Positions 4,101-25,048 of a DNA stretch of 64,000 bases are shown piece by piece. The DNA comes from Draconibacterium orientale (GTDB taxonomy: Bacteria > Bacteroidota > Bacteroidia > Bacteroidales > FEN-979). Position numbers and translations under genes: made by a program. The stretch's first letter is position 1; the number at the start of each line of letters is the position of its first letter. The stretch is taken from assembly GCA_020718225.1 (NCBI GenBank), contig DYSO01000001.1, positions 10,968 through 74,967 on the forward strand. The letters run 5' to 3'. The notes under the pieces were generated by a model that did no database searches, was not told the origin of the DNA, and was given only the letters and a program-made list of their open reading frames with translations.

Positions 4101-5123
4101 ATGAACCAAAACCTGGATGCTTCCGCCCAAAATCTTACTACGGGCGATAAAGAGGTTGAGAAAGCATTACGTCCCTCAGGGTTTATTGAATTCTCGGGGC
4201 AGGAGGCAATTGTTGAAAATTTAAAAATATTTGTCCGGGCTGCCCGTCAGCGGGGTGAATCGCTCGACCATGTTTTGCTTCATGGTCCCCCGGGTTTGGG
4301 AAAGACCACCCTTGCCCATATAATCGCCAATGAATTGAGGGTCAACATCAGGGTAACTTCCGGTCCGGTTCTGGATAAACCGGGCGACTTAGCCGGATTG
4401 CTCACGGGGCTGGAACCGAACGATGTATTGTTTATTGACGAGATACACCGGTTATCACCGGTAGTTGAAGAGTATCTCTATTCAGCGATGGAGGATTACA
4501 AAATCGACATCATGATCGAAACGGGCCCGAATGCACGCAGCATCCAGATCAAACTGAATCCATTCACCCTGGTTGGCGCCACAACCCGGTCGGGGTTGCT
4601 CACCGCTCCGCTTCGTTCACGTTTCGGGATTAATGCCCGCCTGAACTATTATCAAAGCGATACCCTCGAACGGATTATCATCCGCTCTGCCCAAATCCTT
4701 CAGGTGGTCACTGATCCGCCGGCATCTGCCGAAATTGCACGCAGAAGCAGGGGCACACCCCGGATTGCCAACATGCTCCTTCGTCGTGTCCGCGATTTCG
4801 CCCAGATTAAAGGATCCGGCGAAATCGACCTGGCCATCAGCCAGTATGCCCTTTCGGCATTGAATGTGGATAAAAACGGCCTGGATGAAATGGATAATAA
4901 AATCCTCCTTACCATTATCGATAAATTCAAAGGAGGACCTGTTGGCCTTACCACCATCGCAACTGCTGTTTCAGAAGATGCAGGGACCATTGAAGAGGTG
5001 TACGAACCATTTCTCATCCAGGAGGGCTATCTGATGCGGACGCCAAGAGGACGCGAAGCCACCGACATGGCCTACCGCCATTTAGGGAAAATCAGGACCG
5101 GTACCCAGGATACGCTTTTTTAA
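4101..5123 (+). CDS. ruvB: Holliday junction branch migration helicase RuvB
   Basis: LRP..F.EF.GQ, Walker [15 protein letters not shown], Walker [10 protein letters not shown], and [16 protein letters not shown]. Confidence 0.97.
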
Positions 5124-5172
5124 ATAGCGAATAGTGAATAGTGAATAGTGAATAGTGAATAGTGAATATTGA
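5124..5172. repeat. 7-bp tandem array, 7 copies (ATAGCGA, ATAGTGA x5, ATATTGA)
   Basis: Counted base by base. It starts the nucleotide after the ruvB TAA and ends the nucleotide before the queG ATG. Confidence 0.97.
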
Positions 5173-6117
5173 ATGTCGAAGCTCATCGGAGAACGAGCAT
5201 TGACCGGCCATAAAGCGTTAATCCGTGAAGAAGCCCTGCGCCAGGGTTTTTTGCACTGTGGGTTTGCCCGCGCAGAACCGCCGGAAGAAATCCGTGGGTT
5301 CTATTCCAGCTACCTCGAAAAAAACAGGCAACTTTCCTTATCCTATCTGCAAAGCAACTTTGAAAAAAGGATGGACCCCTCCCTTGTTTTACCGGGGGTT
5401 AAATCCATTATTTCCCTCACCCTGGGTTATTCCGCACAGCCGCCCGTTCCTGAAAAAGATTCTTTTGTCATCGCCAAATATGCCCGTGGCGCCGATTATC
5501 ATGAAATCATGAAAAAAAAGATGGACCGGTTTATTTCATGGCTTAAAGCAGAGTTTGGGAGGGCCCGGATAAAACGGTTTGTCGATTCGGGGGCCATTCC
5601 TGAAAAATTCTGGGCCATGCGTTCCGGGGCCGGATGGCAGGGAAAAAATACCCTGATTATCCATAAGGAGGCGGGTTCCTTTTTTTTTATCGGCATCCTG
5701 CTGACCGACCTGGAACTGGAAGCCGATTCCCCGGCCACCGATCATTGCGGCCACTGTACAGAATGTATCAAAGCCTGTCCTACGGGGGCCCTCAACACGC
5801 CTTACCAGCTTGACATGTCGCGCTGTATTTCATACCACACCATCGAAAATAAAAACGCCATTCCGGAAGATATCATTCGCCATCTCGGCAACCGGATCTA
5901 TGGTTGCGACCTGTGCCAGGACGTTTGTCCCTATAACCGGGCCCCAAAACCAACAATCATTCCCGAATTCCTTCCCTCGCCGGATTTGATGAACATGGGA
6001 AAAACCGAATGGCTCAACCTGTCGGAAAAACAATTTGACCGGCTTTTCGGCCATTCTCCGGTCAAACGGATTGGATACGACCGGTTGATGAGAAATATAA
6101 ATGCCGCTTCGGGGTAA
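5173..6117 (+). CDS. queG: tRNA epoxyqueuosine(34) reductase QueG
   Basis: Two ferredoxin-type clusters, CGHCTECIKACPTGAL and GCDLCQDVCPYN. CISYHTIE is also present and length is ~314 aa. Confidence 0.92.
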   Translation: MSKLIGERALTGHKALIREEALRQGFLHCGFARAEPPEEIRGFYSSYLEKNRQLSLSYLQSNFEKRMDPSLVLPGVKSIISLTLGYSAQPPVPEKDSFVIAKYARGADYHEIMKKKMDRFISWLKAEFGRARIKRFVDSGAIPEKFWAMRSGAGWQGKNTLIIHKEAGSFFFIGILLTDLELEADSPATDHCGHCTECIKACPTGALNTPYQLDMSRCISYHTIENKNAIPEDIIRHLGNRIYGCDLCQDVCPYNRAPKPTIIPEFLPSPDLMNMGKTEWLNLSEKQFDRLFGHSPVKRIGYDRLMRNINAASG

Positions 6118-19300: not shown

Positions 19301-19667
19301 AGTCGCCGTATTGGCCGATATTGCTTTGCTTCAGATCAGAGAGGGAATTAAAAACAATAAACTGCACTTTTTCTTCAAGCGTCGACTGAAGGGTTTGTTC
19401 AATTCCGGGAATATGCTTATCCGCATATTCCGCTGTAAAAAGGGCCAGTTCCCTGCCATTCAGATAAAAATAGGTATCGAATTTTTCGAAACGGAAATGC
19501 AGCCAGAGGAAATCGTTAAACTGAACCCTGCTTTTTCCGAAAGTCAATTGCGATCCATTGTAAAACTGAGCTTCGGTTTTAAAAGAAAAATGAAGGAGAA
19601 AGAAAATGATGATCCATACCGCCGTCCAACTTTTGGATCGTCCGTTAAAGCATGCATCCTTCGTCAT
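16302..19667 (-). CDS. large outer-membrane protein: PD40/TolB-like beta-propeller repeats plus Omp85 (surface antigen D15)-type C-terminal barrel
   Basis: 1121 aa with a signal peptide. PD40-like repeats include GPDGQTVAYA...IYKVFLLNLETGK and YSDDGSLLLFSAVQKGQSDIFVYNIASG. The C-terminus GFGFGARTRLFGYFIRADLAWG...YFSLSLDF is typical of Omp85 barrels. Confidence 0.65.
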   Translation of the reverse strand: MTKDACFNGRSKSWTAVWIIIFFLLHFSFKTEAQFYNGSQLTFGKSRVQFNDFLWLHFRFEKFDTYFYLNGRELALFTAEYADKHIPGIEQTLQSTLEEKVQFIVFNSLSDLKQSNIGQYGDWDYYNTGGVTKIIGGRVMLFFDGDYEHFEQQIRAGIAQVILNSMMYGTGIGAQIKNNALFTIPEWYSNGLISFISRKWDAGLENLVRDAIINGRYEKFNGLTGLEATQAGHSFWKYIALKYGESAIPDIVYMARLSRNVERGFQNVTGQSFQALVTEWLAFYKEVYTLQESGRNLPPGIPVNKKKKPGRLYNQLKVGPDGQTVAYATHQLGIYKVFLLNLETGKKRRIYRGGYRLAERPDYSFPLIAWHPGGKALSLIVERKGKRCLYIYDREDKSFSRQILENFQKVLDISYSDDGSLLLFSAVQKGQSDIFVYNIASGSHEQITRDLFDDQNPRFFNHSRDIIFSSNRLSDTIRFDDPVKIDQLHHFNDLFLYNYADKQNILHRLTHTPGVHETQPLPYSDHYFCFLGDQNGIVNRYLGKYDSAIAFIDTATHYRYFTTTFPITNYSRNIEEQDISVKGAKMGEIIYNNRNYRMFLEDLVRPDRVDRIELQPSPLQINQKPLPVPGAEVKKSDSGLHLAEPFTVHRRKHFSVVRQSEVISPKWRLSDTVSGNTGLIQQIDQWIGDSTRKKQIPSEPFSMMASSSLFLGKRDSVNKYKSARQLNYNVEYSIDQMVTQIDFTYLNFAYQPFTGSASPVFINPGLNALFMVGLTDLMEDYRISGGVRLNVNLINNEYLLSYSIYKRRLDHQITFHRKAVEEWGYYSLIRHKIHELYYVATWPFNPVLNIKGTAAVRYDRAVYLSTDQYNLKVPDVHTVWGSIKGELNYDNTRSLGVNLYQGTRYKFFGEYYQMLNTSGNNLVVLGLDFRNYQKVHRTLIWANRFAISASFGSNKLLYYMGGVDNWLFPRFNMDIPVATDQNYAFQTLATNMRGFTQNIRNGNSFFVYNTELRWPLFRYLFNRPIRSDLINNFQIVLFGDVGTAWTGASPWSADNQLFVRYVRNGPLFIKVEMQKDPIVEGFGFGARTRLFGYFIRADLAWGVDDGQIMKPVFYFSLSLDF

Positions 19668-19748
19668 ATCCAGCAGTACAAAGCCATATAATTAGAACTG
19701 CTAAAGTACGATTATTTTCTATGCTGCAGCCATCTGGGCACATTTTCA

Positions 19749-19756
19749 TATCTTTG
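19749..19756 (+). promoter_or_regulatory. TAnnTTTG -7 box upstream of the MBL hydrolase
   Basis: tatctttg lies 27 nt upstream of ATG 19784. Confidence 0.4.
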
Positions 19757-19783
19757 CGGCCTCTGTAAAACATCGAAAAAACA

Positions 19784-20422
19784 ATGATCCATCTCCAAAA
19801 AATGACCTTTAATTCCTTTATGGTAAACACCTATTTGTTGTACGATGAAACCGGCGCATGTATCATCATCGATGCTGCCTGTTACGATGTTGAAGAACAA
19901 CAGGAAGTAAAGGATTTTTTGACAAAACATCACCTGAAACTGGTTCGTAACCTCAATACCCACTGCCATGTTGATCATGTGCTTGGAAACCCTTTTATTG
20001 CCGGTTCATTCCAGGTATTTCCCGAATATCACCAACACTCCCTTCCTTTTTTCAAGACCATCAGGGAGATTGGCTCCTCTTTCGGATACACCATCGACCA
20101 GCAGCCCGAACCTGCCCGTTTCCTGGTAGAGGATGAAACCATTCATTGGGGAAATTCATCTTTAAAAGTTCTTTTTACACCCGGTCATGCCGCCGGGAGC
20201 GTCTGTTTTTATAATGAAACCCAGGGATTTGTTATCACCGGGGATGTGTTGTTTAAAGATACCATCGGACGGACCGACCTTCCTTCGGGTGACTTCAATC
20301 AATTGATGAAAAGTATCAAAACCAAACTTTTTACCTTACCCCCCAATACCATCGTTTATCCGGGACACGGCCCTGAAACACAAATCGGGTATGAGATGGA
20401 GAATAATATGTTTATAAGGTAG
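19784..20422 (+). CDS. MBL-fold metallo-hydrolase (glyoxalase II-like)
   Basis: THCHVDHVLG (HxHxDH), TPGHAAGS and GDVLF..TIGRTDLP. Confidence 0.88.
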   Translation: MIHLQKMTFNSFMVNTYLLYDETGACIIIDAACYDVEEQQEVKDFLTKHHLKLVRNLNTHCHVDHVLGNPFIAGSFQVFPEYHQHSLPFFKTIREIGSSFGYTIDQQPEPARFLVEDETIHWGNSSLKVLFTPGHAAGSVCFYNETQGFVITGDVLFKDTIGRTDLPSGDFNQLMKSIKTKLFTLPPNTIVYPGHGPETQIGYEMENNMFIR

Positions 20423-20529
20423 CGAGGTAGCGAGGTGGCGAGGTGGCGAGGTGGCGAGGTGGCGAGGTGGCGAGGTGGCAAGGTAGCGAGGTGGCGAGGT
20501 GGCGAGGTAGCGAAATAGCGAAATAGCGA
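20418..20529. repeat. 8-bp tandem array, 14 copies (GGTAGCGA/GGTGGCGA, one GGTGGCAA, last two AATAGCGA)
   Basis: Counted base by base. The first unit contains the MBL TAG stop (20420-20422). The array ends 2 nt before ATG 20532. Confidence 0.97.
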
Positions 20530-20531
20530 AT

Positions 20532-21539
20532 ATGATTTCTTCCTTGGTAAAAATTCTTATTATCCGGTTTAGTTCCATTGGGGATATTGTTCTTACCACG
20601 CCTGTGATACGATGCCTGAAATCACAATTGCCCGGATTGGAACTTCACTATCTTACAAAAAAACAATTTCTTCCCATCCTTGAGCCGAATCCGTATATAA
20701 ATAAAGTGTGGGGTTACGATCGTAATTTTCGCGATCTGATTCCCCAATTGAAGTCCCAGGGCTTCGATTACGTTGTTGATCTGCATAAGAATTACCGGTC
20801 GGTTTTTGTTAAGCGCCAACTTCAGGTTGCTTCGGCATCTTTTCCGAAATTGAACCTTCAAAAATGGGTCACTGTCCATTTTAAAATGAATGTGATGCCC
20901 GATATCCATATTGTTGATCGGTATTTTGAGGCAGTTAAACCCCTGGGCATTCAAAATGACGCAGGGGGTCTTGATTACTTCATCCCGGCTGTGGATGAAG
21001 TTTCGCTTGCAGGTTTGCCCGCCACCCATCAAAAAGGGTTTTATGCCATAGTCATCGGAGGAAAACATAACACCAAGATCTTCCCGCCGGAGAAAATTGT
21101 CGAAGTGTGTAAAAAACTCTCACAACCGGTGGTCCTGCTTGGCGGGAATGAGGACCGGGAACGCGGGGAACAAATAGCAGAAAGGGCAGGAACACCGATT
21201 TACAATTCCTGCGGGCTGTACAACATCAGTCAGTCGGCTTCGTTCATCCGCCAGTCCAGGGCCGTACTGACAAACGATACCGGCCTGATGCATATTGCCG
21301 CTGCATTCGGCAAACACATGGTTTCGGTTTGGGGCAATACCATTCCGGCTTTTGGGATGTATCCTTACCTGCCGGAAAAATTCAAAGCAAATTCCATGAT
21401 CGCGGAGGTCAAGGGCCTTTCATGCCGCCCATGCAGCAAATTAGGGTTTAAACAATGTCCTAAAAAGCATTTTCATTGCATGATGCTGATAGATACCGAT
21501 CCGATCGTTGATTTTTTAATGCTTGATAATAAATCGTAA
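20532..21539 (+). CDS. glycosyltransferase family 9 (LPS heptosyltransferase-like)
   Basis: ILIIRFSSIGDIVLTTPVIRCLK, VVLLGG..D and TNDTGLMHIAAAFG are typical GT9 motifs. Confidence 0.88.
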   Translation: MISSLVKILIIRFSSIGDIVLTTPVIRCLKSQLPGLELHYLTKKQFLPILEPNPYINKVWGYDRNFRDLIPQLKSQGFDYVVDLHKNYRSVFVKRQLQVASASFPKLNLQKWVTVHFKMNVMPDIHIVDRYFEAVKPLGIQNDAGGLDYFIPAVDEVSLAGLPATHQKGFYAIVIGGKHNTKIFPPEKIVEVCKKLSQPVVLLGGNEDRERGEQIAERAGTPIYNSCGLYNISQSASFIRQSRAVLTNDTGLMHIAAAFGKHMVSVWGNTIPAFGMYPYLPEKFKANSMIAEVKGLSCRPCSKLGFKQCPKKHFHCMMLIDTDPIVDFLMLDNKS

Positions 21540-21652
21540 ATCGTATATCGTAAATCGTAAATCGTATATCGTAAATCGTATATCGTAAATCGTAAATCGT
21601 ATATCGTATATCGTATATCGTATATCGTAAATCGTAAATCGTAAATCGTAAA
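21534..21652. repeat. 7-bp tandem array, 17 copies (TCGTAAA/TCGTATA)
   Basis: Counted base by base. The first unit contains the GT9 TAA stop (21537-21539). The array ends 4 nt before the TTG start of tatD. Unit order by position 6 is A T A A T A T A A T T T T A A A A. Confidence 0.97.
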
Positions 21653-21656
21653 TCCA

Positions 21657-22430
21657 TTGTTCTTTTCAGATTCACATACCCATCTGTACGCCGAAGCGTT
21701 CGACAACGATCGCGAAAAAATGATGCAACGTGCTGTAAAGCAAAATATTATGCATTTTTTTCTTCCCGCCATTGATTCAACATATCATAACAGGATGCTT
21801 AAGGTTGTGGCAGACTATCCCGATACCTGTTTTCCGATGATGGGGCTGCATCCGACCTCAGTAAAAGAAAACTTTGTCAATGAGTTGGCCATCGTTGAAG
21901 GTTACCTTGCAAACCCGGAACTGAAATTCTATGCCATCGGTGAAGTCGGCATTGACCTTTACTGGGATAAAACCCATGAAGCGGAACAGCGAAAAGCATT
22001 CAACTTCCAGCTTGATCTTGCGGTAAAGTACGACCTTCCGGTGGTGATCCATACACGGAACTCGATGGACATTGCCCTGAACATGGTTGAAGACCGGGAT
22101 GATTCAAGGCTCCGGGGCGTATTTCATTGTTTCAGTGGGAATGTTGAACAAGCAAAACGGGCCATCCGACTGGGATTTATGGTTGGAATTGGTGGCGTGG
22201 TAACCTATAAGAACTCAGGCCTGCAAACTGTGGTTGAAAAAACCGCGCTTGATCACCTGCTGCTCGAGACCGATGCACCCTGGCTGCCTCCGGTTCCATA
22301 CCGCGGCCAGCGGAATGAACCAGCCTACCTTCCGCTCATCGCCCGGAAAATTGCAGAATTAAAAAAAATTTCCATGGAAGAAGTAGCCGAAAGTACTTCA
22401 CGGAATGCAACAGCGTTATTTAAACCATGA
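21657..22430 (+). CDS. tatD: TatD-family metal-dependent hydrolase/DNase
   Basis: FSDSHTHLY, GEVGIDLYW, VIHTR, HCFSG and LLLETDAPW. Only a TTG start is available (in-frame TAA 15 nt upstream). Confidence 0.9.
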   Translation: MFFSDSHTHLYAEAFDNDREKMMQRAVKQNIMHFFLPAIDSTYHNRMLKVVADYPDTCFPMMGLHPTSVKENFVNELAIVEGYLANPELKFYAIGEVGIDLYWDKTHEAEQRKAFNFQLDLAVKYDLPVVIHTRNSMDIALNMVEDRDDSRLRGVFHCFSGNVEQAKRAIRLGFMVGIGGVVTYKNSGLQTVVEKTALDHLLLETDAPWLPPVPYRGQRNEPAYLPLIARKIAELKKISMEEVAESTSRNATALFKP

Positions 22431-22507
22431 TCCTGTCGGACCACTGAACACAGACAAAGTACCAGGGTCCGGTATATATTGGTGTTTTACTGTTAAATTC
22501 GATTTTT

Positions 22508-23536
22508 ATGATTGGACAAACAAATATTTTGGTGATCTATACCGGTGGGACCATCGGCATGGTTCAGGATCCAAAAACGATGGCGCTCCGTCCGTTGAGT
22601 TTCGACATCCTCTATAAGTACCTTCCGGTTCTGGAGAATTTCAACTGCACCATCGATTTTTATACGTTTGAGCCCCTGCTGGATTCATCGAACATGAACC
22701 CTTCGTTTTACATCCATCTGGCTACTGTGATCGAAGAAAAATACGAGGATTACGATGGTTTTGTCATTCTTCACGGGTCGGATACCATGGCCTATACGGC
22801 ATCGGCTTTGAGTTTTATGCTGGAGAACCTGAACAAACCTGTAATCTTTACGGGATCTCAGTTACCCATTGGAATGGTGCGGACTGACGGCCGTGAAAAT
22901 TTTATTAATTCCATTGAAATTGCCACCGCGAAGGAGTACGATACCCCGGTGGTGCCTGAAGTTGCCATTTGTTTTGAAAACAAACTTTACAGGGGGAACC
23001 GCACCAGCAAATTCAACGCCGAACATTTCGGCGCTTTCGTTTCGGTAAATTATCCCCTGTTGGCCGAAGTCGGGGTTCATATCAAATACAATCAAAATCT
23101 GATATTGAAACCTAATTTCAAGAAATTGAAGGCCCTCAAGACCCTCGATGAAAATATCACAATCCTGAAGTTGTTTCCCGGCATATCATCTCAGGCCGTT
23201 GAGGCCATACTCCATACAAAAGATTTGAAAGCCGTTATCCTTGAAACTTTTGGATCTGGAAATGCCCCGACCATTCCCTGGTTCATTGATCATCTTCAGG
23301 ATGCCATAACACGCGGAATTATTATTTATAATGTTACACAATGCAAAGGCGGAACGGTGGAGATGGGAAAATATGAAACCAGCGCCGGACTGAATAAAAT
23401 AGGTGTTATCGGAGGTTATGACATCACCACCGAATCGGCAGTAACCAAGCTGATGTACCTGCTGGGGTCCGGTTACTCCCAGGAAAGTATAAAACAATTG
23501 CTGCAAACCTCCCTACGGGGCGAAATGACTGTTTGA
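22508..23536 (+). CDS. ansA: L-asparaginase, type I
   Basis: ILVIYTGGTIGM (active-site Thr), VILHGSDTMAYTASAL and FGSGN. Confidence 0.92.
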   Translation: MIGQTNILVIYTGGTIGMVQDPKTMALRPLSFDILYKYLPVLENFNCTIDFYTFEPLLDSSNMNPSFYIHLATVIEEKYEDYDGFVILHGSDTMAYTASALSFMLENLNKPVIFTGSQLPIGMVRTDGRENFINSIEIATAKEYDTPVVPEVAICFENKLYRGNRTSKFNAEHFGAFVSVNYPLLAEVGVHIKYNQNLILKPNFKKLKALKTLDENITILKLFPGISSQAVEAILHTKDLKAVILETFGSGNAPTIPWFIDHLQDAITRGIIIYNVTQCKGGTVEMGKYETSAGLNKIGVIGGYDITTESAVTKLMYLLGSGYSQESIKQLLQTSLRGEMTV

Positions 23537-23553
23537 GAATCCCGAACTTTTTA

Positions 23554-23561
23554 TATCTTTG
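23554..23561 (+). promoter_or_regulatory. TAnnTTTG -7 box upstream of tRNA-Ser
   Basis: tatctttg. The heptamer array begins 5 nt downstream and the tRNA 66 nt downstream. Confidence 0.4.
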
Positions 23562-23565
23562 CACA

Positions 23566-23621
23566 TCGTAAAACGTAAATCGTAAATCGTAAATCGTAAA
23601 TCGTAAATCGTAAATCGTAAA
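23566..23621. repeat. 7-bp tandem array, 8 copies (TCGTAAA, one ACGTAAA)
   Basis: Counted base by base. Same unit and orientation as 21534-21652. Ends 5 nt before tRNA-Ser. Confidence 0.97.
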
Positions 23622-23626
23622 TTCCT

Positions 23627-23714
23627 GGAGAGGTGTCCGAGTGGTCGAAGGAGCACGCCTGGAAAGTGTGTGTACGCCAAAAGTGTACCCTGGGTTCGAA
23701 TCCCAGTCTCTCCG
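23627..23714 (+). tRNA. tRNA-Ser (anticodon GGA)
   Basis: GGAGAGGTGTCCGAGTGGTCGAAGGAGCACGCCTGGAAAGTGTGTGTACGCCAAAAGTGTACCCTGGGTTCGAATCCCAGTCTCTCCG. Anticodon loop CTGGAAA, long variable arm (GTAC..GTAC) typical of class II tRNA, T-arm CTGGG/TTCGAAT/CCCAG. Confidence 0.9.
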
Positions 23715-23737
23715 CTCAGAATGAATGCTGTTTAACG

Positions 23738-23780
23738 AAAACCACTGAAAACATGGATGTTTTGGTGGTTTTTTGTTTTT
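23738..23780 (+). terminator. rho-independent terminator after tRNA-Ser
   Basis: Imperfect hairpin aaaaccactgaaaacat..atgttttggtggtttt followed by ttttgttttt. Confidence 0.55.
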
Positions 23781-24055
23781 ATTAAAAGTAACATAAAGCA
23801 TTCAAAAGTAAACTTTCAGTGGCTTATTCGGTGGACTGAATTATTTTCCCTCCAAGTCCACCGATTTAGCATATTATGCACTGATTTACACTACTTTACA
23901 TTTCATTCTTTTGCTCTTGGTATCTAATTTAGTTAACCCGGCAAATTTTCCACAGGCAGTAAGGTCAATAATTCTGAAAGCGTTCTGTTTTTTTTCTGAC
24001 GGTTTTTCTGTCGATGTTAGCCTCTCCTTAATCAGGTTGATGACCGATCAAAAAA

Positions 24056-25048
24056 ATGTATAATATTGCATTCAATGTAAATGAAAAAATCAACAAAACC
24101 ATGATCAACTGCATACATAAAATAGCTATTGCCCTGGTGGCCCTGGTCACTCGGCTATCGTTTGTTTTCTTACTTTCATTGCCCATTTTCGCCCAGCAAG
24201 TCTCAGATACGGCGTTTACTTTCCCTATCGCCCAACCAACTTACCCTCCGGGGAGCGGGCCCTTGATTCTCATTGATGAAGCCCATTTCAATTTCCACAC
24301 CCTTGGTGGTGGATTTAAACCATTTGGTAAATTGCTGTCCGGTGATGGTTTCCGGGTCGCGCCTCTTGATCAGCCAATCATCAACAGCGGAATACTGGAA
24401 GGATGTTCCATTCTGGTTATCGCCAATGCCCTCAACGAATCCAATCAACAAAACTGGTTCATGCCAACCCCATCAGCCTTTGCTGCCAGTGAGATTGAGG
24501 TCATTCGTTCATGGGTGGCACAGGGTGGCTCTCTGTTTCTCATTGCGGATCATATGCCATTCGCAGGCGCAGCAAAAAATCTGGGAGCAGCCTTTGGATT
24601 TGATTGGCTCAACGGGTTTGCATTTACCCGGCCCCGGACCTGGCCTCCTTCTGTATTTAAGAAGAGCGACAAGACTTTGGATTCCGGTCCGGTAACCTCT
24701 TCAAATTTCGGTATGCACCCCATTGATTCGGTGATCACCTTTACTGGCTCAGCCTTTCGCATCCCTCCGGATGCCATCCCGGTATTGGTGTTTCATCCGG
24801 ATCACTACTCTCTTCAACCGGATACTGCCTGGCGTTTCACACCAGAAACACCCCGTCAATCCCTTGCGGGATATTACCAGGGGGCCCTGCTGGAGTATGA
24901 CAAAGGTCGTATTGCGGTATTCGGCGAAGCGGCGATGTTTACGGCCCAGATTGCAAACGGCATCCTCAAAGCCGGGTTCAATTCCGAAACAGCTCCGCAG
25001 AATGCCATATTCCTGCTAAACGTGATGCATTGGCTAAGTGGTAAGTGA
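24056..25048 (+). CDS. secreted hypothetical protein (DUF4350/GATase1-like fold suspected)
   Basis: TM/signal segment IAIALVALVTRLSFVFLLSLPIFAQ. LILIDEAHFNFH...ILVIANAL...GGSLFLIADH resembles the DUF4350/ThuA-like layout. The assignment is tentative. Confidence 0.45.
   Translation: MYNIAFNVNEKINKTMINCIHKIAIALVALVTRLSFVFLLSLPIFAQQVSDTAFTFPIAQPTYPPGSGPLILIDEAHFNFHTLGGGFKPFGKLLSGDGFRVAPLDQPIINSGILEGCSILVIANALNESNQQNWFMPTPSAFAASEIEVIRSWVAQGGSLFLIADHMPFAGAAKNLGAAFGFDWLNGFAFTRPRTWPPSVFKKSDKTLDSGPVTSSNFGMHPIDSVITFTGSAFRIPPDAIPVLVFHPDHYSLQPDTAWRFTPETPRQSLAGYYQGALLEYDKGRIAVFGEAAMFTAQIANGILKAGFNSETAPQNAIFLLNVMHWLSGK

Follow-up and report, generated by a model that had tools for sequence, protein, structure and literature searches.

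A TCGTA(A/T)A heptanucleotide array in the GT9-tatD spacer of a Bacteroidales-type genome, probably one of a lineage-wide set of junction arrays

The 64,000-nucleotide stretch of the Draconibacterium orientale assembly GCA_020718225.1 analyzed here (contig DYSO01000001.1, positions 10,968 to 74,967; hereafter the window) carries, between a glycosyltransferase family 9 (GT9) gene and a gene for a TatD-family hydrolase (tatD), an array of 17 exact TCGTA(A/T)A units at 21534–21652 on the forward strand. The array is a bacterial microsatellite of the "long SSR" class (simple sequence repeats, SSRs, with units of 5–11 nt) and occupies the entire GT9-tatD spacer. We propose, with a probability of roughly 0.78, that it is a slippage-driven heptanucleotide SSR in a transcribed intercistronic spacer, one of a lineage-wide set of junction arrays, and that it is tolerated, or mildly useful, as an unstructured, stop-rich and start-free leader. 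Slipped-strand mispairing in replication would lengthen and shorten the array, and the resulting turnover would keep its units homogeneous. The array would be tolerated, and possibly favored, at GT9-tatD because as RNA it would form a harmless or useful spacer; it may serve as the translation initiation region for tatD, which has a weak TTG start, and the chief effect of gaining or losing units would be to move the tatD start farther from or closer to the GT9 stop, and hence to alter the degree of translational coupling.

The anatomy of the array matches a preliminary description, made from the letters alone, in copy number, in the order of the two unit variants and in the overlap with GT9. 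The sixth base runs A T A A T A T A A T T T T A A A A through the 17 units, and the GT9 gene ends AAT AAA TCG TAA, so that the first 6 bases of unit 1 supply both the final sense codon (TCG) and the stop (TAA, 21537–21539). Tandem Repeats Finder (TRF), which adds to the array a partial unit within the GT9 coding sequence, places the repeat at 21530–21654 (period 7, 17.9 copies, 93% matches, score 201), and a two-unit pattern, TCGTAWATCGTAWA, has 21 matches in the window versus 0 in 100 dinucleotide-preserving shuffles. In an Rfam scan of the whole window two tRNAs alone reached the gathering score, with nothing at the array. A CRISPR array was rejected, as the 7-nt units are contiguous and lack spacers, whereas CRISPR repeats are ∼25–40 nt long and separated by unique spacers; iteron and mobile-element readings were likewise rejected on anatomy, the units being contiguous and no terminal inverted repeats or transposase genes lying nearby.

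The array is real and not an assembly artifact, because it is identical in a second assembly (GCA_973786475.1, with only 7 differing positions versus the window over 21 kb) and because both of its edges were recovered in short-read Logan contigs from two sequencing runs. These contigs break inside the repeat, as an artifact might lead one to expect, but homologous arrays stand at the same junction in several other assemblies. Equally, the minus strand of the array has no stop codons and gives two overlapping open reading frames (ORFs) of FTIYDLR-type repeats, which might be taken to encode a repeat protein; however, these ORFs overlap the GT9 and tatD ends, have no match in a Pfam search and would shift in length with each unit gained or lost. 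Because the antisense strand is stop-free, we regard them as by-products, as had been suggested, and consider it barely credible that the array is either an artifact or the complement of a coding sequence.

On sequence comparison, the tatD start is assigned to TTG 21657, 4 nt (TCCA) beyond the end of the array, in agreement with the preliminary description. Since an in-frame TAA lies at 21642–21644, no canonical start other than TTG 21657 is available ahead of the catalytic DSHTH motif; the sole other candidate is a non-canonical ATC at 21645. Translation from the TTG gives a protein of 257 amino acids (aa) with the N terminus MFFSDSHTH, in which the Pfam domain covers residues 5–256. Most TatD homologues are 257–258 aa long, and in 91 of 120 the D[ST]H.H motif is offset by the same 4 residues. 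The closest relative (96% aa identity) has a TTG at the matching position, and more distant orthologues have an aligned ATG; the nearest named homologues come from "Bacteroidales bacterium" metagenome-assembled genomes (MAGs). Two database TatD entries (P0012 and P0026; L329 and L330 around 1501–1560) have an N-terminal extension, "EIRNPKSEIRNQ", that is a translated GAAATCC array, and their true start is probably the TTG aligned with that of the window. At 2931–2998 in L126, the GT9 ORF reads 10 codons into the array and acquires the tail ...NRKSQIVNRKS.

Comparison of the same junction among relatives (Table 1) supports the proposal of a slippage-driven SSR. The gap separating the GT9 stop from the tatD start runs from an ATGA overlap in L127, through 26 nt in L124/L158 (∼96% nt identity), to 117 nt in the window. 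The last two differ by 91 nt, or 13 × 7, corresponding to 4 versus 17 units; this comparison is drawn from assembled contigs, and short-read assemblers can collapse repeats, although the 4-unit contig carries a unit order absent from the 17-unit allele. From the junction comparison we conclude that GT9-tatD copy number changes fast, in whole units, whereas each junction tends to retain an array, often with the same unit, by inheritance across large evolutionary distances.

Length variation among related genomes had been anticipated, and an argument for slippage had been seen in the A and T variants, described as occurring in runs. The latter does not stand: there are 9 runs versus 9.24 expected (P = 0.55; longest run 4, P = 0.67; runs test), and since the order is no different from random, it provides no evidence on the mode of growth. 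The wider claim, of slippage rather than selection for a fixed sequence, is supported in its first part, as length varies in the way that slippage predicts, but the absence of selection is doubtful, because TCGTAAA occupies the same junction in L126 and L161 at ∼72–73% nt identity, because further arrays of it stand before tRNA-Ser in the window and in upwards of 118 stretches from many phyla, and because viral contigs contain it ∼3 times as often as same-composition permutations (see below).

Other junctions of the cluster behave similarly. At the junction upstream of GT9, which follows an MBL-fold gene, AGGTAGCG and TAGTGAAA or TAGCGAAA units occur in the window, L125 and L329, and because these units are the same, we take junction-specific units to be inherited across species; AAATGGTG units occupy this junction in L126 (×24) and L331. 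At the tatD-asparaginase junction, GGCGGACA-type octamers are found in L126 (3773–3895), L159 (3778–3892), L161 (3767–3808) and L333 (2266–2385), whereas neither the window spacer (22431–22507) nor its L158 counterpart contains an array. As four more distant relatives carry the GGCGGACA-type arrays and the window and L158 none, the comparison suggests that this array was lost in the window's lineage. These octamer arrays often precede CACTTAA or CACTTGT heptamers. In the relatives compared, most neighboring cluster junctions are filled with 7–8-nt arrays, and besides the GT9-tatD array the window itself holds three others (5123–5174, 20417–20530 and 23565–23622). The array, at first treated as peculiar to tatD, is one case of a tendency throughout this lineage to fill junctions with 7–8-base repeats.

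The Bacteroidetes −7 promoter consensus is TAnnTTTG. Within 19500–24100 it is matched before the MBL gene (19749), before the tRNA-Ser array (23554) and inside the asparaginase gene (22663), the last presumably by chance; none was found between GT9 and tatD. The genes MBL-GT9-tatD-asparaginase (ansA) are co-directional in the window, and the order MBL-GT9-tatD, usually then asparaginase, is kept in relatives. The four genes are probably co-transcribed, and the arrays between them would be transcribed because, 22663 aside, the only box upstream of the cluster precedes MBL; on this basis the GT9-tatD array would be an intercistronic spacer within a polycistronic transcript. The second TCGTAAA array, lying between a TATCTTTG box and tRNA-Ser, would form a 5′ leader of ∼60 nt in the pre-tRNA. 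In L159 the corresponding leader is an array-free 13 nt, whereas L158, although 96% identical, has there a different, degenerate GTGAAAA/TTTTCAC block of ∼120 nt.

This context bears on whether the array might be a phase-variable contingency switch, in which slippage would turn tatD on and off or grade its expression, as is the case for SSRs that host-adapted pathogens carry in the promoters or 5′ untranslated regions (UTRs) of surface-protein genes. That array length differs between close relatives, that the array sits directly upstream of an initiation codon and that repeats in a 5′ UTR can modulate expression in Moraxella (reviewed in PMC4679880) would all suit such a switch; yet the array does not sit within the reading frame, the interval between GT9 and tatD has no promoter-type box whose spacing could be altered, tatD encodes a hydrolase of housekeeping type and is not a surface or virulence gene, and the presence of such arrays at nearly every cluster junction and in a tRNA leader does not suit a gene-specific device. 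We regard the switch as very improbable. A promoter-spacing switch was rejected, there being no TAnnTTTG box between GT9 and tatD.

The properties of the array as RNA are those expected of an unstructured, stop-rich and start-free leader. On the sense strand TAA occurs in every frame within 21 nt (three units), and AUG, GUG and UUG are absent. The array region folds worse than its shuffles (z = +1.87, with an equal or better fold in 196 of 200 shuffles), and a riboswitch, attenuator or terminator was rejected, the array being less structured than shuffled sequence. In Flavobacterium johnsoniae, where Shine-Dalgarno sequences are not recognized by the ribosome, initiation is favored by A at −3, −6, −12 and −13, by low structure and by AUG depletion near the start (PMC6847099). 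The register AAATCC[A/C] followed by the start codon is common to the window, L124 and L126, and places adenines at −5 to −7 and −12 to −14. By analogy, the fit of the tatD array to the F. johnsoniae determinants is suggestive of an initiation region; the idea is not extended to the window's other two protein-gene arrays because their adenine fit is poor.

Beyond the lineage, a species-representative genome collection contains (TCGTAWA)×3 in over 118 stretches, distributed across 12 or more phyla. Among the matches listed, a hand count from titles gave ∼50 Bacteroidota, 25 Verrucomicrobiota (many of them Akkermansia), 14 Acidobacteriota and 12 Chloroflexota, the remainder being scattered over at least 8 further phyla, with several genomes contributing multiple loci. 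None of the listed matches shares long nucleotide identity with the window; L016 (Saprospiraceae), which also has 17 units, is an unrelated locus with different flanks. Within the 854 kb around the 118 listed matches, TRF reported 282 period-7 arrays (136 with the TCGTAAA unit and 146 with other units) versus 22 arrays with period 8 and 16 with period 6. In viral contigs, (TCGTAAA)×3 was found in 41 stretches, compared with 5, 14, 13 and 15 for four permutations of the same composition, and (TAACTGA)×3 in 107; TCGTAAA is therefore favored approximately threefold in these contigs, yet is not unique. The viral-contig heptamer arrays (L162–L202, L222–L301) include several giant-virus MAG bins, the contigs being "viral" by classification only.

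Relative to flanking ORFs, the TCGTAAA arrays at the 118 listed loci are in sense orientation in 36 cases, antisense in 31, between convergent ORFs in 22 and between divergent ORFs in 16. Median distances to the next ORF boundary are 11 nt for the AAA end and 97 nt for the TCG end (paired Wilcoxon P = 3e-8; L006–L123), although these boundaries are crude longest-ORF calls, which push predicted starts towards stop-rich arrays and may inflate the polarity; measured from stops, which are less exposed to this bias, the medians are 6 and 65 nt (P = 0.003). Many forward arrays end 4–6 nt before an ATG.

Several of these observations weigh against the proposal of a slippage-driven spacer, in addition to the possible collapse of repeats in assembled contigs. 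The orientation of TCGTAAA to flanking genes is unbiased (36 sense versus 31 antisense). As an initiation region the tatD array is imperfect, position −3 being C and the start the weaker TTG; the adenines of the window's other two protein-gene arrays fall elsewhere than −3, −6, −12 and −13, and TCGTAAA also precedes tRNA-Ser, where translation is irrelevant. Neutral slippage alone, moreover, leaves unexplained the retention of TCGTAAA at the junction across ∼27% nt divergence, its recurrence in many phyla and the closeness of the AAA end to ORF boundaries.

A sequence-specific cis-element would address this residue: TCGTAAA would be bound by a conserved single-strand RNA- or DNA-binding factor that sets translation initiation or transcript ends at junctions, with copy number tuning occupancy. 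MacGregor (2015; PMC4679880) proposed likewise for TAACTGA repeats, and ribosomal protein S1 or a cold-shock-domain protein, the candidates put forward there, would be examples of such a factor here. The retention of the unit at the orthologous junction in L126 and L161, the register shared with L124 and L126, the second TCGTAAA locus in the window, the >118 stretches in at least 12 phyla with several per genome, the excess in viral contigs (41 stretches versus 5–15 for the four permutations), the polarity towards ORF boundaries (11 versus 97 nt, P = 3e-8) and the forward arrays ending 4–6 nt before ATG are all consistent with a cis-element, but quite different units occupy orthologous junctions, strand bias relative to flanking genes is lacking, one TCGTAAA array precedes a tRNA rather than a start codon and the polarity distances rest on crude longest-ORF calls. 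On balance we consider such an element doubtful, though arguable. In a broader form, TCGTAAA-type arrays and relatives such as TAACTGA would constitute a conserved polar cis-element of Shine-Dalgarno-poor phyla (Bacteroidota, Verrucomicrobiota, Acidobacteriota, Chloroflexota and Cyanobacteria), recognized in single-stranded form by a shared factor or by the ribosome itself and marking gene boundaries. It would act as an initiation platform when sense before a start and, in antisense orientation after a stop, as a 3′-end element or an arm of a hairpin, with slippage as its built-in tuning, and would explain the persistence of the unit at orthologous junctions, the recurrence across phyla and the closeness of the AAA end to ORF boundaries. 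We regard this broader form as improbable.

Inverted pairs of TCGTAAA arrays were observed in several phyla, mostly as (TTTACGA)n-short loop-(TCGTAAA)n, and make near-perfect hairpins of 20–30 bp, some between convergent and others between co-directional genes (Table 1). They could be bidirectional terminator-like or transcript-end elements. The GT9-tatD spacer of L331 (1117–1500) contains a long inverted repeat, GTGAATCAAGGGTT...GACCCTTGATTCAC, beside its CGTGACG repeats, possibly a small inserted element. Of the window's remaining arrays, that at 20417–20530 runs from the MBL stop (TAG, 20420–20422) to 1 nt before the GT9 ATG (20532), and in run SRR17737360 it has one octamer unit fewer at 20417–20513; the first unit of the 5123–5174 array, AATAGCG, resembles the TAGCGAAA units at 20508–20530.

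Table 1. Features of the window and of compared loci (L numbers); nt and aa values are identities to the window
Feature	Position	Strand	Remarks
GT9 gene	20532..21539	+	Pfam PF01075, E = 4e-22
TCGTA(A/T)A array, ×17	21534..21652	+	GT9-tatD spacer
Partial unit TAAA	21530..21533	+	within GT9 coding sequence, added to array by TRF
Linker TCCA	21653..21656	+	truncated unit TC plus CA, between unit 17 and start codon
tatD-family hydrolase gene	21657..22430	+	TTG start; PF01026, E = 1e-71, residues 5–256
Antisense ORFs, FTIYDLR-type repeats, 71 and 99 aa	21460–21675 and 21473–21772	-	overlapping
TATCTTTG, TAnnTTTG match	19749..19756	+	35 nt before ATG (19784) of MBL-fold gene; putative promoter from motif
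Octamer array AGGTGGCG/AGGTAGCG ×12, then TAGCGAAA ×3	20417..20530	+	MBL-GT9 spacer
TATCTTTG, −7-type box for tRNA-Ser	23554..23561	+	kept in L158; TACCTTTG in L159
Second TCGTAAA array, ×8.3	23565..23622	+	3 nt after TATCTTTG box; ends 4 nt before tRNA-Ser
tRNA-Ser (GGA)	23627..23715	+	Rfam
Heptamer array AATAGTG ×7.4	5123..5174	+	stop of ORF 4101–5123 to ATG of ORF 5173–6117
GT9-tatD junction, L124/L158			∼96% nt; CCGTAAA TCGTATA TCGTAAA TCGTAAA TCCA; 4 units; tatD TTG
GT9-tatD junction, L126			∼73% nt, 69% aa; TCGTAAA ×9.7, then TCCC; tatD ATG
GT9-tatD junction, L161			72% nt; ∼4 degenerate TCGTAAA units; tatD ATG
GT9-tatD junction, L159			73% nt; TTCGTTA/TTCATTA ×8; tatD ATG
GT9-tatD junction, L329, L330			72–76% nt; GAAATCC ×5; tatD TTG
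GT9-tatD junction, L333–335			73% nt; ATTCGTC/ATTCGCA/ATTCACA arrays; tatD ATG
GT9-tatD junction, L331			72% nt; 370-nt spacer with CGTGACG repeats; tatD ATG
GT9-tatD junction, L125			84% nt over aligned pieces, 74% aa; 200-nt spacer, no array; tatD ATG
GT9-tatD junction, L127			70% nt, 65% aa; no array, GT9 and tatD overlap as ATGA; tatD ATG
MBL-GT9 octamer array	L005 1–50; L125 1732–1825; L329 424–457
Inverted TCGTAAA pairs	L063 5770–5821; L010 996–1066; L066 5025–5095, 7402–7465; L104 3604–3720; L114 2602–2685; L084 4524–4595; L122 10–100

The GT9-tatD junction provides a natural series, with 0, ∼4, ∼10 and 17 copies of one unit, or with other units, in a lineage whose ribosomes, by analogy with F. 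johnsoniae, would not recognize Shine-Dalgarno sequences. Such a series is suited to deciding between a neutral filler, an initiation platform and a protein-binding site. In practical terms, junction arrays break short-read assemblies, create spurious ORFs (FTIYDLR-type frames and "EIRNPKSEIRNQ" TatD extensions) and can add tails to real proteins. To our knowledge, what bacterial heptamer repeats do has been an open question ever since the first reports of STRRs in cyanobacteria; the array belongs to a heptamer-repeat kind already described in other bacteria, with function unproven.

The STRR heptamers (STRR1–3) of heterocystous cyanobacteria have the units CCCCAGT, TTGGTCA and CAACAGT. The STRRs of cyanobacteria and the "contiguous heptamer repeats" of Nostoc PCC 7120 are genome-wide heptamers near promoters or starts, some of which overlap the start codon, and a regulatory role has been suspected for them but is unproven (bioRxiv 10.1101/2022.06.06.494920). 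The array resembles them as a tandem heptamer near a start codon, but it differs from the STRRs in phylum, its nearest homologues being in Bacteroidales MAGs, and in unit sequence. TAACTGA direct repeats occur in marine Beggiatoaceae, in cyanobacteria and in some Bacteroidetes (MacGregor, 2015; PMC4679880). With these the array has in common a heptamer of composition A3 T2 C1 G1 that includes a stop codon, a forward position a few nt upstream of a start (4 nt before TTG 21657), long arrays in Bacteroidetes, contigs that break in the repeats, strain indels in 7-nt steps and a scattered phylogeny (PMC4679880). In contrast, TAACTGA is neither a rotation nor the reverse complement of TCGTA(A/T)A, the TCGTAAA-type arrays of the window have 8 and 17 units compared with 2–6 in the Beggiatoaceae genome, and TCGTAAA shows no strand preference across genomes whereas TAACTGA has a forward bias relative to genes in that genome (PMC4679880). 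Because its unit differs, the array stands outside both the TAACTGA and the Nostoc named families. In Moraxella catarrhalis, the 5′ UTR of uspA2 contains an AGAT repeat, a phase-variation SSR whose copy number can affect expression (PMC4679880); it too is a slippage-prone repeat between promoter and start codon, but pathogen phase-variation SSRs have 1–5-nt units and are specific to individual surface or virulence genes, whereas here the unit has 7 nt, the genes are housekeeping genes and nearly every junction has an array.

The closest counterpart is the class of long SSRs (LSSRs) with 5–11-nt units described by Mrazek, Guo and Shah (2007), who, as summarized in PMC4679880, found heptanucleotides to be the commonest long SSR in bacteria and proposed polymerase slippage as the origin. 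In every respect examined the array agrees with this class: its units are head to tail, it is non-coding save for 6 nt of unit 1, its copy number differs by whole units, and it is accompanied in the window by a second TCGTAAA array and an AATAGTG heptamer array, with period 7 prevailing around the 118 listed loci. As far as that summary describes them, the LSSRs of the survey are similarly tandem and intergenic, with heptamers commonest, a unit recurring at several loci and hosts that are free-living bacteria rather than pathogens, whereas the TCGTAAA unit and the uncultured Bacteroidales-type lineage fall outside the survey as summarized there. The arrays of this lineage differ further from the LSSRs of that account in that they fill stop-to-start spacers of a gene cluster that is itself conserved, and in that orthologous junctions keep them from one species to another.

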